Source of the DNA: Lactovum sp.
GTDB taxonomy: Bacteria; Bacillota; Bacilli; Lactobacillales; Streptococcaceae
DNA length: 17,881 nucleotides
Direction of reading: 5' to 3'
NCBI GenBank assembly: GCA_047974165.1
Contig: JBKECB010000035.1
Location: 1-17,881 of the forward strand
The notes under the pieces: model-generated
The model's input: the letters and a program-made list of their open reading frames with translations, nothing else
Database searches by the model: none
What the model was told of the DNA's origin: nothing
Position numbers and translations under genes: made by a program
Shown here: in pieces, positions 1 through 17,881 of the stretch
How positions within the stretch are numbered: the first letter of the stretch is position 1
How the letters are laid out: each line of letters opens with the position of its first letter

Positions 1-216
1 TAGAAGAGCTTCGTCAAGCACCAAAATGTTCAGGAGGTATTTGAGGATAAGCAGCGAACTTTACTATGACCGCCTGACGGACTTGGTGATGTATATTGTG
101 AGTGGTCCTCAAAATCGGATCGTACCTCTGGAGAAGCTAATCTAAGTGCTGCCTTGACACTTTAAACAACGATTACAGTCTTTGAAAAAGATGAAAAAAT
201 TCTAAAAACTTTATCA

Positions 217-450: not shown

Positions 451-483
451 ATCATTGAAAGTAATGCTGAGCAGTTTGACAGT

Positions 484-732
484 ATGATACGGACGGTTAC
501 CTGGACGCAAAAGTCAGCTAAAACAGTAATTGATACTACTAATGGTCTTTTGAATTCCGGAGGAGTGGACTTAAAAAATAGTCAGGATTATATGATAATT
601 TTGGAACTCCCCTCTCTAATACACGGACTAATGGTGTTGATAGCAATAGTATCTTTGACTTTTTTCCCAACCACTTATGATAAAAGACAGTACGAAAAAG
701 TTAATGTTGTAAAAAGCTTTGATTGGCGTTGA
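484..732 (+). CDS. Hypothetical small membrane protein (82 aa, one predicted TM helix).
   Basis: ATG ORF with a hydrophobic stretch LIHGLMVLIAIVSLTFF. No clear SD. Tandem with the preceding small ORF. Confidence 0.3.
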   Translation: MIRTVTWTQKSAKTVIDTTNGLLNSGGVDLKNSQDYMIILELPSLIHGLMVLIAIVSLTFFPTTYDKRQYEKVNVVKSFDWR

Positions 733-980
733 CTACTTGTCTTTTTAGTGGCTCTTCTCTTGGGTGTTTTGAGACGGACATAGATATGACCTAAACCTAA
801 AAAAGAAAAAGTTTAGTTAAATTAATCTTTTTAAGAATAATAAAAATAAATAATAGAGATTTAGTATATTACTTTTTGAATAAATCTTTTGATAATAAGT
901 AGTGTTATATTTTTCTAAAATTATTATGACAGTTTAATAGTTGCTATTAAATGCTTATTTAAGAAAATTCTTAGTTAAAG

Positions 981-989
981 TGTTATAAT
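981..989 (+). promoter_or_regulatory. Extended -10 promoter element (TGtTATAAT) for gap.
   Basis: TGnTATAAT at 981-989, about 65 nt upstream of the gap ATG, inside a roughly 320-bp AT-rich non-coding leader. The -35 is weak. Confidence 0.45.
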
Positions 990-1054
990 AGTAAATGTAA
1001 GCTAGTTAAGAAATTAACTTAGTCAAATAAAATTCTTATAGGAGGCAACTACAC

Positions 1055-2065
1055 ATGGTAGTTAAAGTTGGTATTAATGGTTTTGGACGTATTGGTCGTC
1101 TTGCACTTCGTCGTATTCAAGAGCTTGAAGGAATCGAGGTTGTACACATCAACGATCTTACAGATCCAGCAATGCTTGCTCATCTTTTGAAATATGATAC
1201 AACTCAAGGTCGTTTCAATGGTGAAGTTAAGGTTGAAGAAAACGGTTTTGATGTAAATGGTAAATTCATCAAAGTTACTGCTGAACCAGATCCATCAAAC
1301 ATTAACTGGGCAGAAGCTGGCGTTGAAATCGTTCTTGAAGCAACTGGCTTTTTTGCAACTAAGGAAAAAGCTGAGAAGCATTTACATGCTAATGGCGCTA
1401 AGAAAGTTGTTATCACAGCACCTGGTGGAAGCGATGTTAAGACAATCGTCTTCAATACAAACCATTCAGAATTAACAGGTGAAGAAACTGTTATCTCTGG
1501 TGCATCATGTACTACAAACTGTTTAGCACCAATGGCTGACGCTTTGAATAAAGCTTTTGGTATCCAAGTAGGTACAATGACAACTATTCACTCATACACA
1601 GGTGATCAAATGACCCTTGATGGCCCACACCGTGGAGGTGATTTCCGTCGTGCACGTGCTGCTGCTGTAAATATCGTTCCTAACTCAACAGGTGCTGCAA
1701 AAGCTATCGGTCTTGTATTACCAGAGTTGAACGGTAAACTTCAAGGACATGCACAACGTGTATCTACACCAACAGGTTCATTGACTGAGCTTGTAGCAAT
1801 CGTTGATAAGAAAACTTCTGTTGAAGAAGTTAATGCAGCAATGGAAGCTGTTGCAAATGAATCTTATGGCTACAACACAGACGAAATCGTATCTTCAGAT
1901 ATCGTTGGTATGAGCTTTGGTTCATTATTTGATGCAACTCAAACAGAAGTAACAACAGCAGGTGATGCTCAACTTGTTAAAGTTGTATCATGGTATGACA
2001 ATGAAATGTCTTATACAGCTCAACTTATCCGTACTCTTCAATATTTTGCTGAAATCGCAAAATAA
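1055..2065 (+). CDS. gap: Glyceraldehyde-3-phosphate dehydrogenase (type I GAPDH).
   Basis: N-terminal [10 protein letters not shown] Rossmann motif and active-site [13 protein letters not shown]-terminal [16 protein letters not shown]. 336 aa. GGAGG SD at 1041-1045, 9 nt before the ATG. Very high identity to streptococcal Plr/GapA. Confidence 0.97.
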
Positions 2066-2083
2066 GTAAGAGAGTAAATAAAA

Positions 2084-2104
2084 GTAGCTTCGGCTGCTTT
2101 TTTT
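2084..2104 (+). terminator. Rho-independent terminator of gap.
   Basis: GUAGC-UUCG-GCUGC hairpin: 5-bp stem including one G-U pair, UUCG tetraloop, followed by 7 U. Lies 19 nt after the gap stop. Confidence 0.7.
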
Positions 2105-2130
2105 GTAATAAAATGTCTTTAGATATAAGA

Positions 2131-2160
2131 AAAACGACTTTAGATTTTAAGTCGTTTTTT
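2131..2160 (-). terminator. Hairpin terminator downstream of the minus-strand PepSY lipoprotein gene. A/T runs on both sides, so it is bidirectional.
   Basis: aaaacgactt / aagtcgtttt: 10-bp perfect inverted repeat with an 8-nt loop, flanked by A-run and T-run. Lies 19 nt after the lipoprotein stop on the minus strand. Confidence 0.6.
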
Positions 2161-2178
2161 AAAATTTATATTAAATAC

Positions 2179-2775
2179 TTAATCATTTATATCCATATCA
2201 GATTCTCTGATATCACCAGATGCTGCATCAATTTCATAGCTATATTCAGTAGTTCCTATATAAAACTCAACTTCATAAACCTTGACATTGTTGTCGTAAT
2301 CTAAACTAACCTGAGTAAAATTAGCATCAGTTTCTTTTTTTCCAGCATGCGTTAAAGCAATTTCTTTTGCCTTAGCTTCACCAATCTCAGTAGAATTACT
2401 GGAAGAACTAGTATCTTTAGTACTTGATTCAGTACTAGAACTTTGAGAGCTAGAGGCTTCTTTACTAGAATTTGATGAGCTGATGATGTAATCCTCCACG
2501 TCAGAGTCGTAAGAAATAACATCTCCACTATCGGCATCAATTTCATAATCATACTCTGTTGCTCCTATGTAAAACTCGACATCATAAACTTTATTTCCAT
2601 CTTCTCTGTCGAGTTTTGTCCGAATAAACTGGGCATCAGACTCACTTTCACCTGCGTGTTTTATTGCAATCTCTCTTGCTTCTGATGCAGTGATCTTTGT
2701 TGAGTTATTTCCACAGGCAGTAAGAACTGTAAAGCTTGAAAGTGTCAGTAGTGTTATTATAAGTTTTTTGTTCAT
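2179..2775 (-). CDS. Lipoprotein with two tandem PepSY domains joined by a Ser-rich linker.
   Basis: Signal peptide MNKKLIITLLTLSSFTVLTAC with lipobox LTAC. Two repeated modules (KVYDVEFYIGATEYDYEIDADSGDV and KVYEVEFYIGTTEYSYEIDAASGDI) separated by SSSNSSKEASSSQSSSTESSTKDTSSSS. The ORF-track start at 2787 is TTG; the ATG at 2775 has GGAGG 5 nt upstream, so the start is placed there. Confidence 0.8.
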   Translation of the reverse strand: MNKKLIITLLTLSSFTVLTACGNNSTKITASEAREIAIKHAGESESDAQFIRTKLDREDGNKVYDVEFYIGATEYDYEIDADSGDVISYDSDVEDYIISSSNSSKEASSSQSSSTESSTKDTSSSSNSTEIGEAKAKEIALTHAGKKETDANFTQVSLDYDNNVKVYEVEFYIGTTEYSYEIDAASGDIRESDMDIND

Positions 2776-2798
2776 TTTTTCCTCCAAAGTTATATTTT

Positions 2799-2834
2799 TC
2801 TAACAAATAAATTATAACTTATTTTTGTTAGAAG
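2799..2834 (-). promoter_or_regulatory. 10-bp perfect inverted repeat (ttctaacaaa N16 tttgttagaa) between the HK stop and the PepSY lipoprotein start. Overlaps a TTATAAT -10-like hexamer on the minus strand.
   Basis: Arms at 2799-2808 and 2825-2834 are exact reverse complements. The 16-nt spacer, read on the minus strand, is aataagTTATAATtta. No U-tract follows, so it looks more like an operator or internal promoter than a terminator. Confidence 0.4.
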
Positions 2835-2855
2835 AAGATTAGAAAATATTAAAGC

Positions 2856-4184
2856 TTATTTTTTAAAAGTTATTTTAAAAGTAGTACCTTGCATGACTTT
2901 ACTTTTAACCTCAACTTTCCCCTTATGAAATTCAGCGATTTGCTTGACCATAGCAAGTCCAAGTCCCCAGCCTTTATTATGAGTTCTTGCTTTATCTGCC
3001 TGATAAAATCGATTCCAAATATGAGGAAGGTCAGTCTCATCAATCCCAATCCCATCGTCAGAGACAGAAAGTGAAAGAGTATTTTGATTTTCTTCTAATT
3101 GAATATAAATTTTTCCATTTTCCTTTCCATAGCGATAAGCATTTTGAAGGAGGTTTTGTATCAAACGTGTCATGAGAGAACTATCAACTTCAAAAAAAAT
3201 GTCAGCTTGTATGTTTTCTATTAAAAGGATATTTTTGCTATTTATTGTTAGATATTCTTGACAGATTGAAGAAATAAAGTTGCTAAAGTTGATTCGTTTT
3301 AGATTGGTATTTTCTATTTGTTGTTCGATTCGGGTAAATTGTAGTAAGGAATTAATGAGTTTAGACATGCGATAGCCTTGTTTTTGAATGGCCGTAATAG
3401 TTTCATATAATTCTTCTTTAGTCTTTGCGTGTTCAAAAGCATATTCACATTGAGCGAGTATAATACTAAGAGGCGTCCGAAGTTCATGAGAAGCATCTGA
3501 GGTAAAGTGTCGCTCAGCTTCAAAATTATTTTCTAGCTGAGAAAACATCTGATTGAAAGTAACGGCGAGCTGATAAAGTTCATCTTTATTTGTGTTTAAT
3601 TCAATTCGTTTAGATAAATCTCCACTTTCTTCGATTTCTTTTGCTAAGAAACTTATTTTTTTTATAGGACTTAAAGAGCGTGAGGCAATAAGGTATCCAC
3701 CGATAGCTGCAAGAAGAATGAGTAATGGTAAAGAAATGACAAGTGCCTGATACATCATGTTAATAGAGATAGCACTATTATTTTTAGATACAAAGCCTCT
3801 AATCCAGAAATTTCCAACTTGCCGATCGTAGAGGAAGTAATTCTCCTCTTTAATTTTTAGACTTGTAATATTTCTATCTTCAAAGTTTTTTGTTAAATGA
3901 GAGTACTCGTTGTCTCCACTTATCAACTTACCATTGGCATCAAAGATAAGACAGTTGATTCCATTTTTAAAGGAGATAAAATCCTCGTCAATATCAAGTT
4001 CACCATCTTCAAATTCTACTTCCTCAGTATTTTCGTCAACGATACTGATAAGTGTATTTTTGATAGTTCCAGAGGCGCTATTACTAGAGAGAAAGAAAGT
4101 GAAGGCGAGTATTAGACTAGAAAGGAGAATCATAAATCCAGTAAACCAAATTGTAATTTTTAATTTGATACTTAATTTTTTCAT
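2856..4184 (-). CDS. Sensor histidine kinase, EnvZ/OmpR-partner type: two TM segments, extracellular sensor domain, HisKA and HATPase_c.
   Basis: H-box SHELRTPLS, N-box LLQNAYRYG, G-boxes DDGIGI and GWGLGLAMV. Predicted TM1 near residue 15-35 and TM2 near 150-170. The ATG overlaps the response-regulator stop (ATGA at 4181-4184). Confidence 0.9.
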   Translation of the reverse strand: MKKLSIKLKITIWFTGFMILLSSLILAFTFFLSSNSASGTIKNTLISIVDENTEEVEFEDGELDIDEDFISFKNGINCLIFDANGKLISGDNEYSHLTKNFEDRNITSLKIKEENYFLYDRQVGNFWIRGFVSKNNSAISINMMYQALVISLPLLILLAAIGGYLIASRSLSPIKKISFLAKEIEESGDLSKRIELNTNKDELYQLAVTFNQMFSQLENNFEAERHFTSDASHELRTPLSIILAQCEYAFEHAKTKEELYETITAIQKQGYRMSKLINSLLQFTRIEQQIENTNLKRINFSNFISSICQEYLTINSKNILLIENIQADIFFEVDSSLMTRLIQNLLQNAYRYGKENGKIYIQLEENQNTLSLSVSDDGIGIDETDLPHIWNRFYQADKARTHNKGWGLGLAMVKQIAEFHKGKVEVKSKVMQGTTFKITFKK

Positions 4185-4855
4185 TCTTTAACCTTTAGAC
4201 AATAGCCAATCCCACGTACTGTATGGATGAGTTTGAGCTCATGCTTGTCGTCAATTTTTTTTCTTAAATAGGCAATGTAGACATCGACAACATTTGTACC
4301 ACCTTCATAATCATAATTCCAGACATTATCTTCAATTTTCTGCCTTGAGAGTATTTTATTTTTATTTCGGAGAAGGTATTCTAGCAAATTATATTCCAAA
4401 GCAGTTAGAGAAATTTCCTTTTGCTTCCGTGTGACGATGTGTGTTTCAGTATTTAAACTTAAGTCAGCTAAATTATAAATATTTGTTGGATTCTTAGAAA
4501 TAACTCGTGTTAAAACACGTAATCTTGCCAGAAGCTCATCGAAAGAAAATGGTTTGGTTAAGTAATCATTTGCTCCTAAATCAAGTCCTTTTACCTTATC
4601 GGAAATAGTATCTTTGGCTGTTAGAAAAAGCACAGGCGTGAGGTTGTCTTTGCTACGCAAAGCTTTGACAGCTTCAAAACCATCAAGTTTTGGCATCATA
4701 ATATCTAAAATGGCAGCATCGAAAAAATTACTTTCGAGATAATCTAGTGCATCCTCACCATTAAAGCAACTATCAACAGTATAGTTTTCAGCTCGTAATT
4801 TTTTAGTAATAATCTCATTTAAATCAACATCATCTTCTGCAATTAAAATTCTCAT
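4181..4855 (-). CDS. OmpR-family response regulator (receiver domain plus winged-helix DNA-binding domain).
   Basis: MRILIAEDD, phospho-acceptor in AAILDIMMPKLDG, and VLFLTAKD. C-terminal winged helix ...YIAYLRKKID...TVRGIGY. GGAGG SD 5 nt before the ATG. 224 aa. Confidence 0.9.
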   Translation of the reverse strand: MRILIAEDDVDLNEIITKKLRAENYTVDSCFNGEDALDYLESNFFDAAILDIMMPKLDGFEAVKALRSKDNLTPVLFLTAKDTISDKVKGLDLGANDYLTKPFSFDELLARLRVLTRVISKNPTNIYNLADLSLNTETHIVTRKQKEISLTALEYNLLEYLLRNKNKILSRQKIEDNVWNYDYEGGTNVVDVYIAYLRKKIDDKHELKLIHTVRGIGYCLKVKE

Positions 4856-4872
4856 TTTTACCTCCTTATTTT

Positions 4873-4881
4873 ATTATATCA
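4873..4881 (-). promoter_or_regulatory. Extended -10 (TGaTATAAT on the minus strand) for the RR-HK-PepSY operon.
   Basis: The reverse complement of 4873-4881 is TGATATAAT. It sits about 7 nt upstream of the AAGGAGG SD of the response-regulator gene. Confidence 0.45.
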
Positions 4882-4946
4882 TTGAATAATGAGAATGAGA
4901 TGAGAGCTTTTTCTCTGAAAAATCAAAGAAGAATTTTAGAAAAAAA

Positions 4947-4955
4947 TGTTATAAT
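4947..4955 (+). promoter_or_regulatory. Extended -10 (TGtTATAAT) for yqeG, 6 nt upstream of the ATG. This predicts a leaderless transcript.
   Basis: TG at 4947-4948 and TATAAT at 4950-4955. The ATG is at 4962. No SD lies between them. Confidence 0.4.
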
Positions 4956-4961
4956 TTAGCT

Positions 4962-5492
4962 ATGACAATAGAAAACTATCAGCCAACTTACTATCTAGAA
5001 GCAATCTATCAATTAGATGCTGAAACTTTAAAAAAAATAGGAGTAACGCTTGTTTTAGCTGACTTAGATAATACACTAACAGCTTGGAATAATCCTGAAG
5101 GTAGTCCTGAAATGAGAGCCTGGTTGGAAGAAATGAAAAGGGAAGGGATTTCGGTTGTTGTGGTATCCAATAATCATAAAAAAAGAGTAACTCGAGCAGT
5201 TGCCCCTTTTAATATTCCTTTTGTGTACCATGCATTAAAACCCTTTACAAGAGGGATACGTCAAGCAATGAGAGAACATAAAGGAGAGTTAAAGTCAACC
5301 CTAATGGTAGGAGATCAGCGAATGACAGATATTCGAGCAGCTAAGCGTGTTGGTATCCGTTCTGTTTTGGTGAAACCTTTACTTATTTCGGATCACTGGC
5401 CAACTTTGATAAATCGCACACGTGAGAAAAGAGTGACAAAAAAGATAGAGGAAAAGTATGGAGAGATTATTTATCAGAAAAATCTTAAATAA
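4962..5492 (+). CDS. yqeG: HAD-superfamily (subfamily IIIA) phosphatase YqeG.
   Basis: HAD motif I LADLDNTLTAW, motif II VVSNN, motif IV GDQRMTDI. Its length and N-terminus align with B. subtilis YqeG. First gene of the conserved yqeG-yqeH cluster. Confidence 0.85.
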   Translation: MTIENYQPTYYLEAIYQLDAETLKKIGVTLVLADLDNTLTAWNNPEGSPEMRAWLEEMKREGISVVVVSNNHKKRVTRAVAPFNIPFVYHALKPFTRGIRQAMREHKGELKSTLMVGDQRMTDIRAAKRVGIRSVLVKPLLISDHWPTLINRTREKRVTKKIEEKYGEIIYQKNLK

Positions 5493-5515
5493 ATTAAATA
5501 AAAGTTGTGCTTTTG

Positions 5516-5524
5516 TGATATACT
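5516..5524 (+). promoter_or_regulatory. Possible internal extended -10 (TGaTATACT) 6 nt upstream of the yqeH ATG.
   Basis: Same geometry as the yqeG promoter: a -10 hexamer, a 6-nt spacer (aagctt), then the ATG, with no SD. Confidence 0.3.
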
Positions 5525-5530
5525 AAGCTT

Positions 5531-6622
5531 ATGACTGAAGAACTTTATTGTATCGGCTGTGGAAGTTTAATCCAGATAGAAAATAAGAAAGAAGCTGGTT
5601 ATCTTCCAGTATCAGCTTTAAATAAAAAGCAAGAAGAGGAAGCCGTTTACTGCCAACGTTGTTTCAGACTTCGTCACTATAATGAAATTACAGCAAGCTC
5701 AATGACTGAGGAGGATTTCCTCCAAATGTTAAAGAAAATCAGTAAAAAAAATGCTCTGATTGTAAATGTCGTGGATATTTTTGATCTGACGGGTTCAATG
5801 ATAGAAAAATTACCCCAGTATGTTGGGAAGAATGAAATTTTACTAGTTGCAAATAAACTTGATATCCTACCTCACTCTTTGAAAAAGCATAAGCTGACAA
5901 CTTGGATAAGAAAAGAAGCAGGAAATCTTGGATTAAATGTAAAGGATGTTTTTGTCATGTCAGCCCGTCGTAAGGCTGATGTTGAAGAGTTGTTAGATTT
6001 GATTGATAACTATCGAAAAAATAGGGATGTTTATGTTGTTGGAGTTACAAACGTTGGAAAGTCAACCTTGATTAATGCGATGATAAAGCAGGTGAGTGGA
6101 CATTCAGATTTGATAACGACGAGCCGCTTTCCAGGAACAACTTTGGATTGGATTGAAATACCTTTAGATGAGAAGTCAAAGCTTATTGATACACCAGGTA
6201 TTATTCATAAAGGTCAGATGGCTCATTATTTAAACCCAGAAGATTTAAACTTAATTTCTCCCAAAAAGGAAATTAAGGCGAAAACTTGGCAGCTAAATGC
6301 TGGGCAAACATTATTTCTTGCAGGTTTAGCTAGGGTTGATTTTGTATCTGGTGAGCGTCAGGGGATTACGACTTATTTTGATAATGAATTAATGATTCAC
6401 AGAACGAAGCTCTCAGGAGCAGATGAATTTTACAAAAAGCATGCGGGTGAACTTTTAACTCCTAATATTTCAAAAATCTTCATCAAACATGAGTTCAAAA
6501 TTACAAGAAAGTCTGACCTTGTGATTTCAGGATTAGGATGGGTCCGTATTGCAAAAGAGGCTGAGTTTATAATCTGGACTTCTGAGTCGATTGATGTTTC
6601 TATTCGAGAGTCTTTAATTTAA
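5531..6622 (+). CDS. yqeH: Ribosome-biogenesis GTPase YqeH (circularly permuted GTPase with an N-terminal zinc ribbon).
   Basis: N-terminal CIGCG...CQRCF zinc ribbon. G4 (NKLD) precedes G1 (GVTNVGKSTLIN) and G3 (DTPGI), which is the circularly permuted order. 363 aa. Confidence 0.9.
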   Translation: MTEELYCIGCGSLIQIENKKEAGYLPVSALNKKQEEEAVYCQRCFRLRHYNEITASSMTEEDFLQMLKKISKKNALIVNVVDIFDLTGSMIEKLPQYVGKNEILLVANKLDILPHSLKKHKLTTWIRKEAGNLGLNVKDVFVMSARRKADVEELLDLIDNYRKNRDVYVVGVTNVGKSTLINAMIKQVSGHSDLITTSRFPGTTLDWIEIPLDEKSKLIDTPGIIHKGQMAHYLNPEDLNLISPKKEIKAKTWQLNAGQTLFLAGLARVDFVSGERQGITTYFDNELMIHRTKLSGADEFYKKHAGELLTPNISKIFIKHEFKITRKSDLVISGLGWVRIAKEAEFIIWTSESIDVSIRESLI

Positions 6623-6641
6623 AAAATAAAAGGAGGCTAAT

Positions 6642-6860
6642 ATGGAATGGTTAGAAAGTTATCGAGTATTAAAAATTAATGGTCTTACAAAAAAGGTCTT
6701 ACTAGAAGTCGATCCTGATGATCGTTTTTATAAGAAGTATGATTTAAATTTGTTTGATGAAAATGTCAGAGAAGGCTGTCAAGTTTATAAATATAAAAAT
6801 ATTGATGAACAAGAAGAATTTATTTTTATTACAGAAATTATGGAGAAAGAAGGAAGATGA
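6642..6860 (+). CDS. Hypothetical 72-aa cytosolic protein, translationally coupled to the downstream flotillin.
   Basis: Strong SD AAGGAGG 7 nt upstream. Its stop overlaps the flotillin ATG (ATGA). No TM segment. I recognise no family. Confidence 0.6.
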   Translation: MEWLESYRVLKINGLTKKVLLEVDPDDRFYKKYDLNLFDENVREGCQVYKYKNIDEQEEFIFITEIMEKEGR

Positions 6861-8308
6861 TGTTACTGTTACTAGTTTTTATTGCTTTTATTTTATTACT
6901 TCTATTTATTATTCTTTTAAGTTATAAAAGAGTCCGATCTAATACTGCCTTGGTTATTTGGGGTAAGGGAACGGGTGCTAATGGAATAAAAATTAAAACA
7001 GGAGGTGCAACTTTCGTCATTCCTATTTTACAAGGCTCACAAAAATTAAGTCTTGAGCCTTTTGCCGTGGATGTTGACCTAAAAGGAGCTTTGTCTAAGA
7101 AAAATATCCGTGTGAATACACCTTCAACCTTTACGCTTGCAGTCTCCTCAAGTCTAGATATGTTAAATAATGCAGCTCGTCGTATCTTAGACTTAAAGGA
7201 TGCAGCGTTGATGGAGCAATCCAGAGACATTATTTTAGGGCAATTACGTGCAGTGATTGCTGGTCTAACGATTGAGGAAATTAATGCAGATCGTGAAAAG
7301 TTTGAAGCTGAGGTTTTTAAAAATGTTTCTTCAGAGCTTTATAAGTTAGGTCTTGATTTAATTAATGTGAATATTAAGGATATTACAGATGAGGCAGGCT
7401 ATATTGAAGCAATTGGTCGTAAAGCAAGTGCTGAAGCGGTTAATCAGGCAAATATTGATGTGTCTAATGCTGATAAGTATGGCGAAATCGGAACAAACGA
7501 AGCACGTAAAGAAAAAGAAATTCAAGTGTCTAAGTTTAATACCGAACGTGAAATTGGAATTAGCTCTGCTGAAAAGGAGCGTATCATTCGTACAGCTGAA
7601 TTAGCAGCAGAGCGTGCAGAGGGTGAGAATCTTGCGATGGCTAAGCAACTTGAAAGTAATAAAGACTTGGCAGTTAAGACGGCAAAATTTGAAGAGGATT
7701 CTCGTCTAGCAGAAATTAGTGCTCAAATTGCAATTCAAAAACAAAAGGCTGAAGAAGAACTTGAACAACTTCGTGCTGAGGAAGTTTCTAAAGTCAAGGC
7801 TGAAAAAGAAAAAATTGAACTCCGAGCAGAAGCTGAAAAGAATAAACGTATCAAAGAAGCTGAAGCTCAAGCACAGGAAATCTTGCTTTATGCAGAAGCT
7901 GAAGCTCAAGGTATTAATAAAATCATGGAAGAAAAGGCAGCAGGTTACAATAAGATTCGTAAGGCTGTAGGGGATGATAATCTTGCAACCATTCTGATGA
8001 TTGAAAAGCTTGTAGAAGTTACGAAGGTGAAATCTGATGCCTTGAACAATCTTAATATTGATAAGATTACTGTTTGGGACAATCCTGGCTCTGGAAATAC
8101 AGAAGGACGTTCAGGTTTAAATGGATTTGTGGATAACTTTATGAACTCAATACCAGCCATGCATGAAATTGCAAATGATGCAGGAATTGATTTACCAAAA
8201 TATCTAGGTGAGCTAAAGAATTCAGCTCTTAAATCTGTAGAGTCAGAAGAGGAAGTTACTGTAAATAATCGTCCTTTAGATCCTATTGAAGTAAGTACTG
8301 ATGAATAA
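6857..8308 (+). CDS. floT: Flotillin-like SPFH/band-7 protein (FloT/YuaG type).
   Basis: N-terminal hydrophobic hairpin MMLLLLVFIAFILLLLFIILL. SPFH core GGATFVIPILQ (compare B. subtilis FloT GGGTFVLPVFQ). Long Glu/Ala/Lys-rich coiled coil with EA repeats (AEAEKNKRIKEAEAQAQEILLYAEAEAQG). C-terminal NIDKITVWD matches FloT NIDKITVVD. 483 aa. Confidence 0.85.
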   Translation: MMLLLLVFIAFILLLLFIILLSYKRVRSNTALVIWGKGTGANGIKIKTGGATFVIPILQGSQKLSLEPFAVDVDLKGALSKKNIRVNTPSTFTLAVSSSLDMLNNAARRILDLKDAALMEQSRDIILGQLRAVIAGLTIEEINADREKFEAEVFKNVSSELYKLGLDLINVNIKDITDEAGYIEAIGRKASAEAVNQANIDVSNADKYGEIGTNEARKEKEIQVSKFNTEREIGISSAEKERIIRTAELAAERAEGENLAMAKQLESNKDLAVKTAKFEEDSRLAEISAQIAIQKQKAEEELEQLRAEEVSKVKAEKEKIELRAEAEKNKRIKEAEAQAQEILLYAEAEAQGINKIMEEKAAGYNKIRKAVGDDNLATILMIEKLVEVTKVKSDALNNLNIDKITVWDNPGSGNTEGRSGLNGFVDNFMNSIPAMHEIANDAGIDLPKYLGELKNSALKSVESEEEVTVNNRPLDPIEVSTDE

Positions 8309-8320
8309 AAATGAAAGGCG

Positions 8321-8348
8321 AGAGTTTTTAAGAAACTCTTGTTTTTTT
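8321..8348 (+). terminator. Rho-independent terminator after the flotillin gene.
   Basis: agagttt-ttaag-aaactct: 7-bp stem and 5-nt loop, followed by ttgttttttt. Confidence 0.55.
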
Positions 8349-8371
8349 AATCAGAAAATAGTGTAAAATAG

Positions 8372-9904
<1,533 letters not shown>

Positions 9905-9930
9905 CAAAGCTTTGGTTTTTCTATATGAAG

Positions 9931-9939
9931 TGTTATAAT
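9931..9939 (+). promoter_or_regulatory. Extended -10 (TGtTATAAT) promoter for the yhbY-nadD-yqeK-rsfS-yqeM-tmcAL operon.
   Basis: TGnTATAAT, 33 nt upstream of the yhbY ATG. A weak palindrome with T-run (caaagctttggttttt) lies just upstream, after glpK. Confidence 0.45.
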
Positions 9940-9972
9940 GAGGTACAGTAAAAATAAGAGATAAGGATAATC

Positions 9973-10287
9973 ATGGAATTAACAGGGAAACAAAAAAGAT
10001 TTTTAAGAGCAGAGGCTGTGACAATGAAAGCCATTGTTCAAATAGGAAAGCAAGGAATTACAAATGAGATTTTAACAAGTATTCGTCAAGCCTGTGATGC
10101 GCGTGAGTTGATTAAAGTTTCGATATTACAAAACTCAGATAGTCAGGTTGAAGAATTAGCAGAAGCGATTGAAGAAATGGGGCTTGATATTGTTCAAACT
10201 ATTGGACGAAATCTCATTGTCTTTAAGGTTTCAGCCAAGAAAGAAAACCGGAAAATTTCAGAAGAAGTAAAGAAGCTAAGCCGATGA
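9973..10287 (+). CDS. yhbY: YhbY/YqeI CRS1-type RNA-binding protein.
   Basis: MELTGKQKRFLRAEA...IVQIGKQGITNEIL matches the CRM/YhbY domain. 104 aa. Sits at the conserved position before nadD. Its stop overlaps the nadD ATG (ATGA). Confidence 0.85.
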   Translation: MELTGKQKRFLRAEAVTMKAIVQIGKQGITNEILTSIRQACDARELIKVSILQNSDSQVEELAEAIEEMGLDIVQTIGRNLIVFKVSAKKENRKISEEVKKLSR

Positions 10288-10892
10288 CAGTAGAACTTCT
10301 GACTCCCTTTACAAAAGTTAAATTACAACAAGATAAAGAAATACAAAAAGGAGGGATTGCCTTTTTTTGGGGAACTTTTAATCCTGTTCATTTAGCACAT
10401 TTATTGATTGCTGATCAGGTTAGACAGTTATTAAAGTTAGATGAAGTTCGTTTCTTACCTGAAAAGGCAAGCTCTGATGTTCTTGAGATGTTAGCTTTGG
10501 TGACAGACGAAAATCTTAGCTTTAAGCTTGAAGAAGCAAGGTGTCAGACTCGTTTGGGGATTTATGAAACGATTAAAAAATTAAAGGAAAAATCTCCTGA
10601 AAAAGATCTTTACTTTATTTTAGGAGCAGATATGATCGCTTCTTTATCACGATGGCCTGATATCGATGAGTTGGTAAAGTTGGTGACAATAGTAGGTATT
10701 CAAAGACCACGATATCGTGCGGGAACCTCTTATCCTGTCCTTTGGCTGGATTGTCCACAGTTAGATATTTCAAGTTTTCAAATTCGTGAGATGATAAAAA
10801 AAGGAATTGAGCCTAATTTTTTACTTGCTCCTAAAGTGTTAAGCTATATTAAAGAAAGGAATCTTTACCGAGAAGATGATGGAATACTATAA
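10284..10892 (+). CDS. nadD: Nicotinate-nucleotide adenylyltransferase.
   Basis: GGTFNPVHLAHL (T/HxGH nucleotidyltransferase motif). ISSFQIRE (ISSTxIR motif). 202 aa. Confidence 0.9.
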   Translation: MTVELLTPFTKVKLQQDKEIQKGGIAFFWGTFNPVHLAHLLIADQVRQLLKLDEVRFLPEKASSDVLEMLALVTDENLSFKLEEARCQTRLGIYETIKKLKEKSPEKDLYFILGADMIASLSRWPDIDELVKLVTIVGIQRPRYRAGTSYPVLWLDCPQLDISSFQIREMIKKGIEPNFLLAPKVLSYIKERNLYREDDGIL

Positions 10893-11472
10893 AGAGCTTA
10901 AAATGAGTCGGGAAGAGCTGCTTGTTAAAATTCAATCAATGGTCAAAGCCTCAAGATTTCAACATATGCTGGCAGTTGAAAAGGTAGCAGGAGAGTTAGC
11001 TGAGCGCTTTTCAGCTGATATCTATCAAGCAAGGTTAGCTGGTCTTTTACATGATTATGCTAAAGAGTTATCATTTATGGAGTTTGAAGGATTGATTGAC
11101 CGTCATCATTTAGATGAATCTTTGAAATCATGGGGAAATGAAATCTTACATGGAAAAGTGGGTTACTTAAAAATTCAAGAGGATTTAGGACTTGAAAATC
11201 AAGAGATTTTACAAGCGATTGAAAGACATACAACAGGTCATGCTGAAATGACGGTGCTTGATAAAATTGTTTACGTTGCGGACTATATCGAGAAAGGGCG
11301 GAACTTTCCTCAAGTGGATAAGGCGCGTGAGTTAGCTGCTGTATCTTTAGACAAGGCTCTGGCTTTTAAGACAATGCGAACGATGGAGTATTTGATAGCA
11401 AAAAAAGAACCTATCTATCCACAAACACTAGAAACTTATAATACATATATTAAATTTTTGAAAGAAAAATAG
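10876..11472 (+). CDS. yqeK: HD-domain protein YqeK (bis(5'-nucleosyl)-tetraphosphatase family).
   Basis: HD-domain residues HMLAVEKVA...LLHDYAK...HT. Conserved position after nadD. Overlaps the nadD 3' end by 17 nt. Confidence 0.85.
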   Translation: MMEYYKELKMSREELLVKIQSMVKASRFQHMLAVEKVAGELAERFSADIYQARLAGLLHDYAKELSFMEFEGLIDRHHLDESLKSWGNEILHGKVGYLKIQEDLGLENQEILQAIERHTTGHAEMTVLDKIVYVADYIEKGRNFPQVDKARELAAVSLDKALAFKTMRTMEYLIAKKEPIYPQTLETYNTYIKFLKEK

Positions 11473-11481
11473 GAGAAAAAA

Positions 11482-11844
11482 TTGGAAGCAAAAGAATTGT
11501 TAGAACTTGTCGTACGAGCGGCAGATACAAAGAAGGCAATTAACATTGTTGCTTTAGATGTGGCTGAGGTATCTGGTGTATCAGACTACTTTCTTATCAT
11601 GGAGGGGATGAACTCTCGTCAGCTATCAGCTTTAGTAGCAGCGATTGATGAAGCAGTAGCTGCTCATGGGATTGAAGTTGGTGGAAAGATTGAAGGACAG
11701 GCAGACTCAGGCTGGATTTTGATGGACTTAAATGATGTTGTTGTCAGCATTTTTGATCATGATACACGTGGTCGCTTTAATCTTGAAAAACTCTGGCTAG
11801 ATGCACCGTTGGTAGATGTGACGGATTGGATTTCAGAAGACTGA
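11482..11844 (+). CDS. rsfS: Ribosome silencing factor RsfS (YqeL / Iojap family).
   Basis: Aligns along its full length with B. subtilis YqeL (DYFLI..G.N..Q..A....I; NLEKLW.DAP). TTG start with AGGAGA SD 5 nt upstream. 120 aa. Confidence 0.85.
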   Translation: MEAKELLELVVRAADTKKAINIVALDVAEVSGVSDYFLIMEGMNSRQLSALVAAIDEAVAAHGIEVGGKIEGQADSGWILMDLNDVVVSIFDHDTRGRFNLEKLWLDAPLVDVTDWISED

Positions 11845-12560
11845 TGCCATTTTACGAAGATTTTTCAAAAGTTTATGACCAGATTATGGATCAAGACTTA
11901 TACGAACGTTGGCTTAAATTTAGTCAACGTCATTTTTCATCCTCAACAAAAACGATTTTAGAATTAGCCTCTGGCTCAGGAGAATTGGCTTTAAGATTTG
12001 AAAAAGCTGGCTATGAAGTGACAGGTCTTGATATTTCAGAGGAGATGCTGACCCTAGCGAGAAAAAAATCGATGAAGTCAGAGTTTTTTAAAGGAGATAT
12101 GCGTGATTTTGACTTAGTGAAAAAGTTTGATGCCATTACCTGCTACTCTGATTCACTTTGTTATTTAGCAAATTTAGAAGAACTTTCAAATACTTTTCAA
12201 ACTGTCTATCGACATTTAAATGATGGGGGCTGTTTTATTTTTGATATGCATTCGATTTATCAGATAGATGAGATTTTTCCTGACTACAGCTATCATGAAA
12301 ATGCAGAGGACTTTGCTTTTTTATGGGATTCTTATAAGGGAGAAGAGGCACATTCCATTGAGCATCAGCTGAGCTTTTTTATTAAAACAAAAGAAGAAAG
12401 CTTTGTGAGAAAAGATGAGCTTCATCTGGAGAGGACCTATGAAATTTCTGAAATTTTAAAGAAGCTAAATGATTTTTCTTCGGTTGAAGTATTTGCAGAT
12501 TTTGAAGATCAAGCTCCTTTAGAAGACTCAGCAAGGTGGTTTTTTGTATGTCAAAAGTAA
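11844..12560 (+). CDS. yqeM: Class I SAM-dependent methyltransferase (YqeM family).
   Basis: SAM motif ILELASGSGELAL. The N-terminus MPFYEDFSKVYDQIM aligns with B. subtilis YqeM. The start is placed at the ATG at 11844, which overlaps the rsfS stop (ATGA). The ORF track's TTG at 11826 seems less likely. Confidence 0.8.
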   Translation: MPFYEDFSKVYDQIMDQDLYERWLKFSQRHFSSSTKTILELASGSGELALRFEKAGYEVTGLDISEEMLTLARKKSMKSEFFKGDMRDFDLVKKFDAITCYSDSLCYLANLEELSNTFQTVYRHLNDGGCFIFDMHSIYQIDEIFPDYSYHENAEDFAFLWDSYKGEEAHSIEHQLSFFIKTKEESFVRKDELHLERTYEISEILKKLNDFSSVEVFADFEDQAPLEDSARWFFVCQK

Positions 12561-13639
12561 CAGGGATTATTGCAGAGTTTAATCCTTTTCATAATGGCCA
12601 TCGCTATCTCTTGAGCCAAGCCACAGGAACAAAAGTAGTGGTCATGTCTGGAAATTGGATGCAAAGAGGAGAACCAGCCTATATTGATAAGTGGATAAGA
12701 GCAGAAATGGCCTTGATGAATGGAGCTGATTTAGTAGTTGAACTTCCAGTTCTTGCTTCTTTACAGGGGGCAGATTTTTTTGCCAAGGGAGCCGTGGATA
12801 TTTTATCTCATCTATCAGTTACTGAAATTTTATTTGGCTCTGAAGTTAATTTGGATTATCAAGAAATTGCAGATATTTATAGGAAAAAGTCTGAAAAAAT
12901 GCAGACTTACTTGGACTCTTTGCCAGATTATTTGTCCTATCCTGTGAAAGCTGAAAAGATGTGGGCAAAGTTTGCAAATATTCAATTTAATGGTGGAAGC
13001 CCTAATCATATTTTGGGCTTAGCTTACGCTAAAGCAGTCAAAGAAAGTGATATTCAGCTTAAAACGATAATACGTGAAACGGGTTATAATGATGATAAAT
13101 TAGCAGGGACAATTGCTTCAGCAACTGCAGTCCGACAAAATTTACCAGAATCGAAAAAAGCTGTTCCTAAAAATATATGGGAGCTTCTTTTAGATGCCGC
13201 TAAGGTTAGCTGGTCAGATTTTTGGGAGCTATTACGCTATAAGATTATTTTAAGTCGAGATTTGACTCAGATTTATCAGGTAAATGAAGAACTTTCAAGA
13301 CGAATAAAGCTTGCCATCAAAGTTTCTGGAAGTATTGAAATGCTAGTTGAGAAGGTTTATACTAAACGCTATACAAAAGGGCATATCCGTCGTTTATTAA
13401 CTTATATTTTACTAGATATTCCTAAAAACTCTCAACTTGTCCAAGATATTCATGTTTTAGGATTTACTGAAAAGGGACAGGATTTGTTAGCAGGTATAAG
13501 AAAAAAAGATATTTCATTGGTAACGCGTATTGGGAAAAATCCCTGGGATAGTCTGACACAGTCAGCAGATGAAATCTACCGCTTGGGAAATTCAGAGATT
13601 CCTGAGCAGACCTATGCTAGAAAGCCGATTATAAAATAA
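12548..13639 (+). CDS. tmcAL: tRNA(Met) cytidine acetate ligase TmcAL (YlbM/DUF795 nucleotidyltransferase).
   Basis: N-terminal GIIAEFNPFHNGHRYLL (HxGH-like nucleotidyltransferase motif), typical of TmcAL. The ATG at 12548 has AAGGTGG 8 nt upstream and overlaps the yqeM 3' end. The ORF-track GTG at 12536 seems less likely. Confidence 0.8.
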   Translation: MSKVTGIIAEFNPFHNGHRYLLSQATGTKVVVMSGNWMQRGEPAYIDKWIRAEMALMNGADLVVELPVLASLQGADFFAKGAVDILSHLSVTEILFGSEVNLDYQEIADIYRKKSEKMQTYLDSLPDYLSYPVKAEKMWAKFANIQFNGGSPNHILGLAYAKAVKESDIQLKTIIRETGYNDDKLAGTIASATAVRQNLPESKKAVPKNIWELLLDAAKVSWSDFWELLRYKIILSRDLTQIYQVNEELSRRIKLAIKVSGSIEMLVEKVYTKRYTKGHIRRLLTYILLDIPKNSQLVQDIHVLGFTEKGQDLLAGIRKKDISLVTRIGKNPWDSLTQSADEIYRLGNSEIPEQTYARKPIIK

Positions 13640-13669
13640 AAAATAGTGTTAAGTTATACGGTCTCTTTA

Positions 13670-13678
13670 TGGTATAAT
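13670..13678 (+). promoter_or_regulatory. Extended -10 (TGgTATAAT) promoter for yebC.
   Basis: TG at 13670-13671 and TATAAT at 13673-13678, 37 nt upstream of the ATG. AGGAGA SD. Confidence 0.45.
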
Positions 13679-13715
13679 AGACAGGAATTTTAAATCAAAT
13701 AATTAGGAGAAGAAA

Positions 13716-14429
13716 ATGGGACGTAAATGGGCAAATATTGTTGCTAAAAAAACAGCAAAAGATGGTGCAAACTCAAAAGTATATGCTAAGTTTGGTGTAG
13801 AAATCTATGTGGCAGCAAAGCAAGGCGAGCCAGATCCAGAGTCAAATGCTGCCTTGAAATTTGTGATTGAGCGTGCAAAGCAAGCACAAGTACCAAAGCA
13901 TGTGATTGATAAGGCCATTGATAAGGCTAAGGGTTCAACAGATGAGACTTTTACAACAGGTCGTTATGAAGGCTTTGGACCAAATGGATCGATGATTATC
14001 GTAGATACGCTGACAAATAATGTCAATCGTACAGCTGCAGACATTCGCTCTCTCTATAATAAAAATGCTGGTAATTTTGGCTCGACAGGTTCTGTATCTT
14101 ATATGTTTGATAATTCAGGAATTATTGTCTTTAAAGCGGATAATGCAGACGAAGTTTTTGAATATCTTTTAGAAAAAGAAGTGGAAGTACGTGATGTGGA
14201 ACAGCAAGATGATCAGGTAGTTGTGACTACAGAACCTACTGATTTGCATAAAGCAGTGGAGGCACTCAAGGAAAATGGTGTCACCGAGTTTACACAAACA
14301 GAGCTTGAAATGGTACCGCAAACAGAAATTGAACTCTCTGGAGAAGACTTGGAAAGCTTTGAAAATTTAATTGAACTTTTAGAGGATAATGATGATGTTC
14401 AAAAAGTTTATCATAATGTAATGCTTTAA
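13716..14429 (+). CDS. yebC: YebC/PmpR-family protein (probable transcriptional regulator / translation factor; YeeN-like).
   Basis: [55 protein letters not shown] is the hallmark YebC N-terminus. 237 aa. Confidence 0.9.
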
Positions 14430-14669
14430 TGTGAAGTTAGCAATATAACAAATACAAGCTATCATTAAGTTTGACTTAAAATGAGGTAGAAAGAAATTAA
14501 AAAAGCGATAGTTTATCGATCATTTTATTTATAACCATAATGTTAGCTTCTCTAAAGTTATACTAAATATTAGTACTTTTAAAAATTATATAAGAAGAAA
14601 TTAAGTTTATTTTAGAAATAAATGTCTAATGGATTATTTGATATGATTAAAAAATAGAATAGAGAAAAT

Positions 14670-17600
14670 ATGACAAGATATAGTGTTGGTCTAGATATAG
14701 GTATTTCAAGTGTTGGCTGGAGTATCGTGGATATTGATAAAAAGGAAATTGTTGATTTAGGAAGTCGAATTTTTCCTTCAGGTAATGCTGAAAGTAATCA
14801 AAAGAGAAGATCCTTTAGAGGTGCACGCAGACTTATTCGTAGACGGAAGAATAGATTATCTGATTTACAAAAAATTTTATCAGAGAAGGGTTTTCCAATT
14901 AGATTGAATAGCTCAGCGAATGTTTATGAATTACGAGTAAAAGCTTTAACAGAGCAACTTTCAAGAGAAGAGCTTTCTATCGTTTTGTATCATCTTGTGA
15001 AACGTCGTGGAATTTCCTATGATTTAGGTGATCTGGAAGATGATGGAACAAGTGGAGTAACAAACTATAAATCCTCTATTAATGAAAATAGGAAATTGTT
15101 ACAATTAGGAAAAACAGTTGGAGAGATTCAACTAGAGCGATTAAAAAAGTATGGACAGGTACGTGGACAAGTAACGATTGATAACATAAGCTTGTTAAAT
15201 ATATTTCCATCGTCAGCTTATGTAGAAGAAGTAGAGAGAATTTTAAAAACTCAAGAAAGCTTTTATACAGAAATAACAGCTGAATTTATAGATAAAATTA
15301 AAGACTTAATTAGACGTAAGCGTAAGTATTTTCATGGACCAGGAAGTGAGAAGTCACGAACAGATTACGGGATTTACAAAGTAAGTGGTGAAACTCTTGA
15401 AAATCTATTTTCTGAACTTATCGGTAAGGATAAGATTAATGGAGAACGTCGTGCTTCTGCTTCAAGTTTGACAGCTCAAATTTATAATTTATTGAATGAT
15501 CTTAATAACTTAACTGTTCCTAATACAGAAGATGGGAAGTTAACTACTGAGATAAAAATGGAAATTTTAGAAAAAGCAAAAACGACTAATGAACAATTTG
15601 GTTTGACTCAAATTTGTAAAATTATTGGGAGCAAAAAAGAAGAAATTAAAGGTTTTAGAATTGATAAATCAGAAAAACCTATTATTCACACATTATCAGG
15701 ATATAGGAAATTTCGTAAAATTCTTGCTGAAGCAAATGTTGAAGCAAATGATTTGCCTACAGAATTTTTCGATAAAGTAGCAGATATTCTAACTTTAAAT
15801 ACAGAAAAAGCAGAAATTCGTAAGCAACTAGATAAAGAAGAACTTGAAATATCAGATGAAATTAAAGAAATAATTAGTAGAGAAAATAAGAATTTACTTG
15901 TTGATAGTCGTGCAACTTGGCATAGTTTCTCATACAAGACATTAAAACTTCTTATTCCTGAACTGTTAAATACATCAGATGAACAGATGACGATTTTATC
16001 TAAGCGTGGACTTATAAAGGTTGATAATAAAAAGTATCAAGGCTTAACTAAGATTCCAGCAAAGCTAATTACAGAGGAAATATATAATCCAGTTGTTTCA
16101 AAGTCGACTTATGAGTCTATTAATGTGTTCAATGCCATTTCAAAAAGTTTAGGCTCTGAAAATATCGAACATGTGGTTATCGAATTACCTAGAGAAGATA
16201 ATGAAGATGATATTAAAGATAATTATATAGACTTTCAAAAACAACAAAAAAAAGAGAAAAGTGAGGCTGATTTAGAACTTCTTCAACAACTGGATATTTC
16301 TTTTGAGAGCTTGAAATCAAAATATAGACAATATAAAAAACTATCTCAGAAAGTTCGATTTTGGTATCAACAAGAAGGAGTTTGTCCTTATTGTGGTGAG
16401 AAAATTCCTGCAATCAAACTTGTTAATCAGAATGAGAATTTTGAGATTGATCATATTATTCCGATTTCAGTAAGTTTTGATGATTCTCAAGATAATAAAG
16501 TCATTTGTCATAGTAAATGTAACCAAGAGAAAGAAAAGCAAACGCCTTTAGGTTGGATAAATAATGGTGGCGGCTTTGGTCAGAATAAAGAAGACTATAA
16601 ATCAAAAATTAAAGCAAATAAGCATTACTCTAAAAATAAGAAGTATAATTTATTAAATGATGTTGATCTAAATGATATTGAAGTGCGTCGTAGCTTTATA
16701 AGTCGAAATATTAATGATACTCGTTATAGTTCAAAGCTTGTACTTAATGAACTTGAAAGCTTTTTCAAATCAAATAACTTACCGTCAAAAGTAAAAGTAG
16801 TACGTGGTAAGTGGACCTCTCAGATGCGTAAAAAATGGAATAACTCAGGTGGACTTTCAAAATCAAGAGACACACATCATCACCATGCGATTGATGCCAG
16901 TATCATTGCAAGTTTTCCTTTGGTTAAAGTCTTTAGTCATCGTGTTAACTTAATAACTAGTGTGGATATGGAGACAGGCGAAGTTTTAGGAAAAATACCG
17001 ATTCTCTCATATAAAGATTTTAAAAAAGAAGTCATGGAAATTTCTGACTATCCACTTTTTAAACAAATCGAAGAGGCAAATGATATTGGTCATTTTGAAA
17101 AAGATGAAAAGGGACAGAGTTATCTTGTTGAAAACCCCCAAAAAATAAAAAATAATCCTGTGAAATTTAGCCATAAAGTAGATAAAAAAGTAAACCGTGA
17201 AATTGCAAATCAGACAATCTATGGGACACGACAAAGAAAGAAAATAGAGACAAAAGGTCGTGGAAAAAATAAAAAAGAAGTTGAAAAAATAGAAAATTAT
17301 GTATTTGCTTCAGTTAATATTTATGCTTTTGAGTCACGTCCAGGTGTTAAAGGCTGGAAAGATGCTAAAAAACTTTTTGAGAAGACAAAAAATGGAGAAA
17401 AAGTTTTCTTGATGCAGGAAAAAGATCCTAAAACTTGGGAAAAACTTGTTGAAATTCTCAAGACCTATCCAGATAAAATAGAGCAAACTCAAGCAGATGG
17501 AAAAGTAAAAGTTTCATCCCTCTCTCCTTTTGAGCTTTATCGTAAAGAGAATGGATTTGTGACAAAGTATTCTAAGCATAATAATGGTCCTAAAGTTAAA

Positions 17601-17881
17601 AAAATTAAATATTATGACCATAAACTTGGTAGTCATATGGATATAACACCTAAAAATTCTAAGAATAAAGTAATACTAAAGTCAATAAAATCATGGCGAA
17701 CTGATGTTTATTATAATAAACAAACTAAAAGTTATGAGTTATTAGGACTTAAATATAGAGACTTAAAATATACAAATGGAACTTATGGTATTAGCCAAGA
17801 AGATTATGAAAAATTAAAATATGGAATTGAAAAAGATGGTACGATACTTTGGAAACCGATTAGCAAAGAAAGTGAGTTTTG
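14670..17881 (+). CDS. cas9: Cas9 (type II-A, S. thermophilus CRISPR1 / St1Cas9-like), 5' portion only. The ORF is open to the end of the window (at least 1070 codons) and is absent from the supplied ORF track because it has no in-window stop.
   Basis: RuvC-I GLDIGISSVGW (D9). Arg-rich bridge helix RRSFRGARRLIRRRKNRL. RuvC-II HVVIELPRE (E505, nt 16182-16184). HNH EIDHIIP...DNKV...NQEK (H595, nt 16452-16454). RuvC-III DTHHHHAIDA (H739/D742, nt 16884-16895). Long collinear identity blocks with St1Cas9: KRKYFHGPGSEKSRTDYG, NLLNDLNNLTVP, ELIPEL..TS.EQMTIL, LTEEIYNPVV.KS, RTP, DTRY, KYSK..NGP.K..KYYD.KLG.H.DITPK.S.NKV.L.S...WR.DVY.NK.T..YE.LGLKY.DL. Confidence 0.92.
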   Translation, partial: MTRYSVGLDIGISSVGWSIVDIDKKEIVDLGSRIFPSGNAESNQKRRSFRGARRLIRRRKNRLSDLQKILSEKGFPIRLNSSANVYELRVKALTEQLSREELSIVLYHLVKRRGISYDLGDLEDDGTSGVTNYKSSINENRKLLQLGKTVGEIQLERLKKYGQVRGQVTIDNISLLNIFPSSAYVEEVERILKTQESFYTEITAEFIDKIKDLIRRKRKYFHGPGSEKSRTDYGIYKVSGETLENLFSELIGKDKINGERRASASSLTAQIYNLLNDLNNLTVPNTEDGKLTTEIKMEILEKAKTTNEQFGLTQICKIIGSKKEEIKGFRIDKSEKPIIHTLSGYRKFRKILAEANVEANDLPTEFFDKVADILTLNTEKAEIRKQLDKEELEISDEIKEIISRENKNLLVDSRATWHSFSYKTLKLLIPELLNTSDEQMTILSKRGLIKVDNKKYQGLTKIPAKLITEEIYNPVVSKSTYESINVFNAISKSLGSENIEHVVIELPREDNEDDIKDNYIDFQKQQKKEKSEADLELLQQLDISFESLKSKYRQYKKLSQKVRFWYQQEGVCPYCGEKIPAIKLVNQNENFEIDHIIPISVSFDDSQDNKVICHSKCNQEKEKQTPLGWINNGGGFGQNKEDYKSKIKANKHYSKNKKYNLLNDVDLNDIEVRRSFISRNINDTRYSSKLVLNELESFFKSNNLPSKVKVVRGKWTSQMRKKWNNSGGLSKSRDTHHHHAIDASIIASFPLVKVFSHRVNLITSVDMETGEVLGKIPILSYKDFKKEVMEISDYPLFKQIEEANDIGHFEKDEKGQSYLVENPQKIKNNPVKFSHKVDKKVNREIANQTIYGTRQRKKIETKGRGKNKKEVEKIENYVFASVNIYAFESRPGVKGWKDAKKLFEKTKNGEKVFLMQEKDPKTWEKLVEILKTYPDKIEQTQADGKVKVSSLSPFELYRKENGFVTKYSKHNNGPKVKKIKYYDHKLGSHMDITPKNSKNKVILKSIKSWRTDVYYNKQTKSYELLGLKYRDLKYTNGTYGISQEDYEKLKYGIEKDGTILWKPISKESEF

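Follow-up and report, generated by a model that had tools for sequence, protein, structure and literature searches.

A St1Cas9-like cas9 gene interrupted where a contig of Lactovum sp. ends

This paper deals with a cas9 gene at the end of a 17,881-nucleotide stretch of DNA from Lactovum sp. (contig JBKECB010000035.1 of assembly GCA_047974165.1, a metagenome-assembled genome or MAG), which we call the window when referring to its full length. Very probably, the window holds the 5' 91% of a cas9 gene that belongs to a chromosomal type II-A CRISPR-Cas locus, encodes an enzyme similar to St1Cas9 (the Cas9 of Streptococcus thermophilus CRISPR1), and is cut by the contig end. Codons 1-1070 of the approximately 1170 expected are present, at positions 14670..17881 of the + strand (the strand of all features below, unless stated otherwise). 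Since the window is a complete contig of the Lactovum sp. MAG, the gene stops where the assembly stops, and we infer that the truncation is that of the assembly and not a biological one.

The open frame and its identity as Cas9

Translated from 14670 to 17881, the window yields 1070 codons without a single stop and the frame runs off the 3' end, in agreement with the continuous frame of at least 1070 codons put forward by an earlier, sequence-only reading of this DNA. The ATG at 14670 is the earliest start codon past the in-frame stop at 14655-14657. The G+C content of the frame is 30.5%, compared with 35.2% in positions 1-14669, and because no stop occurs across 1070 codons at such a composition, chance can be excluded as its origin. 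Three minus-strand open reading frames (ORFs; 15686-15937, 16213-16413, and 17007-17234) run antisense to cas9 inside its frame; in line with the same reading, they are in all likelihood spurious. The cas9 frame itself is missing from the six-frame ORF list because this list omits ORFs that run off either end; such lists thus hide genes at contig ends, even where a Cas9 is recognizable from the raw sequence.

On the other hand, the description of this Cas9 as unannotated has to be withdrawn. A homology search returned a 100% identical 1070-residue protein at NCBI, MFV0556089.1, recorded as 'MAG: type II CRISPR RNA-guided endonuclease Cas9, partial [Lactovum sp.]', whose sole contig measures 17,881 bp, and the YebC protein of the window carries the accession directly before it (MFV0556088.1). 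The frame is therefore real but already known: the public record labels the gene correctly, and the gap in the ORF list is a tool artefact. A full-text literature search for Lactovum and Cas9 together found no paper.

Judged from its sequence matches, the protein is a Cas9 with St1Cas9 as its closest characterized homologue, just as had been proposed. The NCBIfam equivalog model TIGR01865 (cas_Csn1), with a score of 623.1 bits, far exceeds its cut-off of 100, pairing residues 4-1051 with profile positions 1-967 of 1070, and the Pfam domains follow in the canonical order, namely bridge helix (weak), HNH_4, RuvC_III, WED, and the start of the PI domain (1009-1050). The top solved structures are the St1Cas9 entries 6rj9 and 6m0v (E ~1e-219; 4.7e-219 for 6rj9), some 180 bits above the next match, and the alignment to 6rj9 is colinear, placing residues 5-1057 of the query on residues 5-1017 of St1Cas9. 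The following matches in the PDB are 8hud_A and then the SaCas9 group.

To look at individual residues, we used an alignment (A1) of the window protein and 26 homologues, thus 27 sequences, ranging from the nearest clade through to the streptococcal 1121-residue enzymes. D9, E505, H595, N618, H739, and D742 are invariant in all 27. The catalytic aspartate of RuvC-I, D9 (14694..14696), lies in the motif GLDIG (residues 7-11) and aligns with D9 of St1Cas9, where D9A is the nickase mutation used in base editors. The arginine-rich bridge helix (residues 46-72; 14805..14885) keeps R46, R47, R50, R53, R54, R58, and R62 invariant in A1 and, like the REC region, is colinear with its St1Cas9 counterpart; the Pfam model Cas9-BH gives it 21.9 bits, which is under the cut-off of 26.3. 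The catalytic glutamate of RuvC-II, E505 (16182..16184), sits in VIELPRE (residues 503-509), aligned with IEMARE of St1Cas9.

Between RuvC-II and RuvC-III lies the HNH domain, whose core (residues 572-626; 16383..16547) matches Pfam HNH_4 with 77 bits. Its catalytic H595, in the motif FEIDHI, and N618 (16452-16454 and 16521-16523) are invariant together with D594, and H595 aligns with the histidine that is replaced by alanine in chain A of 6m0v. RuvC-III (residues 672-748; 16683..16913) reaches 45 bits with Pfam RuvC_III and contains the motif HHHHAIDA (residues 736-743), in which H738, H739, and D742 are invariant (H739 at 16884-16886, D742 at 16893-16895). The WED domain (residues 843-1004; 17196..17681) is complete, covering the full profile 1-131 of CRISPR_Cas9_WED with 130.5 bits. 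The protospacer-adjacent motif (PAM)-interacting (PI) domain has only its start in the window (residues 1005-1070; 17682..17881), with 49 bits for Cas9_PI2 over profile positions 2-43 of 59. The numbers given in the sequence-only reading for D9, E505, H595, H739, and D742 are all correct in the translation, and the nuclease residues of both RuvC and HNH are indeed all present.

By homology, the full-length protein of about 1170 residues would bind the duplex of CRISPR RNA and trans-activating CRISPR RNA (tracrRNA), and PAM recognition would go through the WED and PI domains. HNH (H595, N618) would then cut the target strand, and RuvC (D9, E505, H739, D742) the non-target strand.

The missing 3' part and the rest of the locus

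How much of the gene is missing can be estimated from the homologues in A1, nearly all of which continue for 96-107 residues past the last residue of the window (the exception being P0017, from Lactococcus nasutitermitis, with 88). The closest relatives carry 98-101 further residues, so the full window Cas9 should measure about 1170 residues, with about 99 missing; these and the stop codon fall beyond the contig end. The nearest full-length proteins are 1154-1200 residues long and share 62-68% BLAST identity with the window protein, none being closer than 68%. They form an uncharacterized Lactococcus/Lactovum/Liquorilactobacillus clade, with members from Lc. allomyrinae (P0005), Lactovum odontotermitis (P0007), Lc. 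hircilactis (locus L003), and Lc. nasutitermitis.

We compared the loci of four relatives, namely Lc. hircilactis (L003), Lactovum odontotermitis (L004), Lc. nasutitermitis (L005/L006), and a Logan contig with the closest relative (L007). All four share one plan: cas9, a tracrRNA in the gap between cas9 and cas1, then cas1, cas2, and an ORF of 343-346 residues. In Lc. hircilactis, cas9 (5381-8908 of that locus) is followed after a 199-bp gap by cas1 (TIGR03639, 290 bits) and cas2 (TIGR01573), and the 343-residue ORF behind cas2 matches Pfam Cas_St_Csn2 with 61.8 bits; ORFs of the same size occupy this place in the other three. An array follows csn2, in which spacers of 30-31 nt separate the copies, about 49 in number, of a 36-nt repeat. 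Near-identical 36-nt repeats occur in the relatives whose contig extends far enough, the first 24 bases being found 37 times in Lactovum odontotermitis and 22 times in Lc. nasutitermitis. The repeat of the relatives reads GTTTTTGCACTCTCAACATTTTCCTATCAGTAAAAC. Their tracrRNA lies on the + strand, with TTGATAGGAAAATGATTGAGAATCTGCAAAG as anti-repeat and AAGGCTTTATGCCGAAATCA as nexus, and also has a terminator hairpin. Compared with L003, L005, and L007, the nexus of Lactovum odontotermitis (L004, 11517-11750) shows GGGTTTATCCC in place of GGCTTTATGCC, a compensatory pair change by which the stem is supported.

A tracrRNA, cas1, cas2, a St-type csn2, and an array of 36-nt repeats would thus be expected immediately 3' of the window, with a repeat modelled on the relatives as GTTTTTG(C/T)ACTCTCAACATTTTCCTATCAGTAAAAC. 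Apart from the tracrRNA, this is the arrangement that had been anticipated for the DNA downstream, and it is indeed seen in the relatives, the profile match to csn2 being limited to Lc. hircilactis. The 17,881-bp window itself contains no cas1, cas2, or csn2. As csn2, the gene that defines the subtype, is not in the window, the Cas9 might in principle belong to subtype II-C or II-B and hence have no csn2 following it. We consider this extremely improbable, since the best structural matches all go to II-A enzymes, with St1Cas9 ahead of 8hud and the SaCas9 group behind both, and since all examined relatives at 62-68% identity have cas1, cas2, and the 343-346-residue ORF, the Lc. hircilactis copy of which is recognized as Cas_St_Csn2.

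Guide RNA components were searched for in the window as well. No Rfam model matched at its gathering threshold, and the gap between yebC and cas9 (14430..14669) gave no match even at E<=1; no anti-repeat matched above background, no nexus motif was found within three mismatches, and no repeat-like sequence indicated a CRISPR array. A tracrRNA 5' of cas9, as in S. pyogenes, was considered and rejected, given that there is no match in the window and that the relatives have theirs 3' of cas9. Because the relatives place both tracrRNA and array 3' of cas9, their lack in the window is expected, and that of the tracrRNA was not counted against type II-A membership. The identity as Cas9, the order of the domains, the intact catalytic residues, and the existing public record are established, whereas for the window Cas9 a complete gene, membership in subtype II-A, activity, and the guide RNAs and PAM are inferred.

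Two side observations concern the loci of the relatives. In Lc. nasutitermitis (L005/L006, 11622-12157), genes for a PhdYeFM-type antitoxin (83 residues) and a ParE toxin (95 residues) are inserted between cas9 and the tracrRNA/cas1, so that a toxin-antitoxin pair separates the effector gene from the other II-A components. In Lactovum odontotermitis (L004, 16649-17564), a gene on the minus strand that encodes an ADP-ribosyltransferase exotoxin domain (PF03496, 185 residues) lies, with a 121-residue partner, just past the CRISPR repeats.

No shared insertion site emerged, as the cassettes occupy different chromosomal sites in all four relatives and that of the window lies downstream of yebC. 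The differing sites and the lower G+C content of cas9 are consistent with horizontal mobility of the cassette.

For the organism of the window, a search with the Cas1 of the closest relative found a full-length type II Cas1 of 300 residues (P0138; TIGR03639, 293 bits) on an NCBI contig of 2,918 bp, recorded as 'MAG ... [Lactovum sp.]'. Its accession, MFV0555589.1, precedes that of the window Cas9 by exactly 500 numbers; accession proximity and organism name suggest that both probably come from the same submission and the same MAG. A length of 2,918 bp would fit the sum of a cas9 tail (~300 bp), a gap (~230 bp), cas1 (903 bp), cas2 (~320 bp), and csn2 (~1035 bp), plus a leader and the edge of the array. 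The downstream parts are probably found on this separate 2.9-kb contig of the same MAG.

Strain variation was seen in two Logan contigs (L001 and L002, from SRR30067253 and SRR30067254), the only ones obtained when YebC was used for extension. They are 2.4-2.8 kb long, 99.5% identical to the window, and both break off within cas9 (window positions 16275 and 15200), with the cas9 frame open in each. Differences between the strains amount to 0.75-1.13% in cas9 and 0.12-0.14% in yebC and the nucleotidyltransferase gene, which puts their density in cas9 5-8 times higher. The assemblies may plausibly break here because cas9 is heterogeneous among strains.

Several points weigh against the interpretation as an intact gene cut by the assembly. 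Everything from the final ~99 codons onward, stop codon included, lies outside the contig, and the tie of the 2,918-bp contig to the window consists of accession proximity and organism name only. A search of the last 196 residues against the protein collection found no overlapping C-terminal fragment (the only matches were 45-53% identical), and an exact 39-mer of the window end gave zero matches in the metagenome contigs of JGI. Moreover, the cas9 differences among the three strains number 13 nonsynonymous to 5 synonymous, which, on such small numbers, is compatible with relaxed constraint; counts this low do not separate relaxed from diversifying selection.

Together with the higher density of strain differences compared with the flanking housekeeping genes, these points could be taken as signs of a degenerate or orphan remnant, disrupted just past the window and unlinked from an adaptation module or array. 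We regard such a remnant as highly improbable. The frame stays open for 1070 codons at low G+C content, every catalytic and near-invariant residue of the family is kept, and the frame breaks off precisely where the contig does. In addition, there is the full-length type II Cas1 of a Lactovum sp. MAG with its neighbouring accession, all relatives examined have complete loci, and several of the strain differences cluster at the tips of the Logan contigs, where assembly-graph artefacts are likely. A St1Cas9-like gene of a type II-A locus, interrupted by the contig end, thus remains the preferred interpretation.

Length, divergence, and the PAM

The window had been said to end at roughly residue 1018 of St1Cas9, the protein being about 50 residues longer up to that point, and A1 agrees by placing the end at about residue 1020 of the streptococcal 1121-residue proteins. 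Most of the excess follows RuvC-III, as had also been noted: residues 751-842 make up 92 residues against 68 in the streptococcal proteins (+24), the WED domain 162 against 145 (+17), and the PI start 66 against 58 (+8). The insertion peptide quoted in that context, GKIPILSYKDF...NPQK, is present at residues 774-825. Most of the extra length is common to the whole Lactococcus/Lactovum/Liquorilactobacillus clade. A lineage-specific insertion of 18 residues, FEKDEKGQSYLVENPQKI (residues 809-826; 17094..17147), is shared in A1 only with the Lc. nasutitermitis protein. The remaining clade members, on the other hand, have an insertion of about 18 residues after ETGEIL that these two lack.

A further claim, that the WED and PI regions are the most divergent part, found no support. 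Measured against three streptococcal proteins (P0028, P0031, and P0118), the WED domain is 51-54% and the PI start 49-53% identical, close to the 46-49% of the whole protein with the streptococcal 1121-residue homologues in A1. The RuvC-III core reaches 57-63%, and identity is lowest, at 26-27% in residues 751-842 and 25-35% in the L1 linker, outside these domains.

The PAM-reading residue K1086 of St1Cas9, which reads G4, sits in the PI domain, and the stretch aligning with it falls past the window end (~St1 residue 1020). Because the PAM-reading part is missing, the window Cas9 is not exploitable without the rest of its locus.

A relative gives some indication nonetheless. Four spacers of the Lc. 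hircilactis array (region 11415-14650 of L003) have perfect matches in P335-type phages of Lactococcus (ul36 derivatives, bIL286, and 53801, all of Lc. lactis, and one phage assembly; loci L008-L012). The 3' flanks of the four protospacers, ATGCAC, GAGCAC, TTGCAC, and AAGCTC, reduce to NNGC(A/T)C, while a fifth protospacer, with one mismatch, departs from it. The implied PAM of the Lc. hircilactis Cas9 would hence be NNGC(A/T)C. Spacers of the Lactovum odontotermitis and Lc. nasutitermitis (L005) arrays had no matches among phages.

Carrying this motif over to the window Cas9 was rejected, as the window has no spacers and the PI tail is variable across the clade, its members being 51-76% identical to the Lc. 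hircilactis protein with two hypervariable loops. These two PI loops, the most variable in the clade, are in the tail beyond the window end. The motif differs from NNAGAAW of St1Cas9 and is closer to NNGCAAA, the PAM reported for St1Cas9 of strain LMG18311. The proposed difference of the window Cas9 from the PAM of St1Cas9 is a reasonable possibility, yet it would be unremarkable, since St1Cas9 variants are well known to vary in their PAM.

One could go further and suppose that the full-length Lactovum Cas9 is active with a PAM unlike that of every characterized St1Cas9 variant, and that the insertion at 809-826 is a functional surface module and not a neutral loop. We consider this combination rather unlikely, although not far-fetched. 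If true, it would add to the compact enzymes for editing one whose PAM is not A-rich, for example NNGC(A/T)C as in the Lc. hircilactis relative.

In short, the gene is an ordinary member of a well-understood family with routine lineage-specific indels. Its value is modest: the set of St1Cas9-like orthologs grows by one, which shares 68% identity with the protein nearest to it and belongs to an uncharacterized Lactococcus/Lactovum clade that, judged from one relative, would use a G/C-containing PAM.

Surroundings and comparison with known systems

The genes 5' of cas9 form a chromosomal housekeeping block. They encode GAPDH, a two-component system, YqeH, a SPFH-domain protein, a FGGY-family sugar kinase, YhbY, a NadD-like protein, a HD protein, RsfS, a methyltransferase, a HIGH nucleotidyltransferase, and YebC. 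The intergenic region between yebC and cas9 is presumed to be the cas9 promoter region; it holds one weak sigma-70-like site (14437-14465), fewer than shuffled sequences give. Elsewhere in the window, three short ORFs (217-450, 484-732, and 6642-6860, encoding 77, 82, and 72 residues) have no significant Pfam match.

Among characterized enzymes, St1Cas9 (6rj9, 6m0v) has the same domain order as the window protein, namely RuvC-I, bridge helix, REC, RuvC-II, HNH, RuvC-III, WED, and PI, and its catalytic residues correspond. The two differ in sequence, as the identity to the streptococcal 1121-residue homologues shows, and in length, the window protein being longer in its visible part. In the clade relatives, the tracrRNA between cas9 and cas1 has the nexus CAAAGATAAGGCTTTATGCCGAAATCA; we take both its position and this nexus to match St1 CRISPR1, and the repeat of the relatives presumably resembles the St1 repeat too.

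SaCas9 (5axw, 5czz) and 8hud_A (1107 residues) are compact Cas9s of the II-A type with the domain order of the window protein as well. Both are more distant from it than St1Cas9: 8hud_A matches residues 4-1049 with E 2.9e-164 and SaCas9 reaches E ~1e-123, the best matched stretch of most SaCas9-group chains ending at RuvC-III, near residue 750. The clade proteins, finally, share with the window Cas9 its extra length over St1Cas9, whereas the presence of the 809-826 insertion and the lack of the one after ETGEIL set it apart from most of them.

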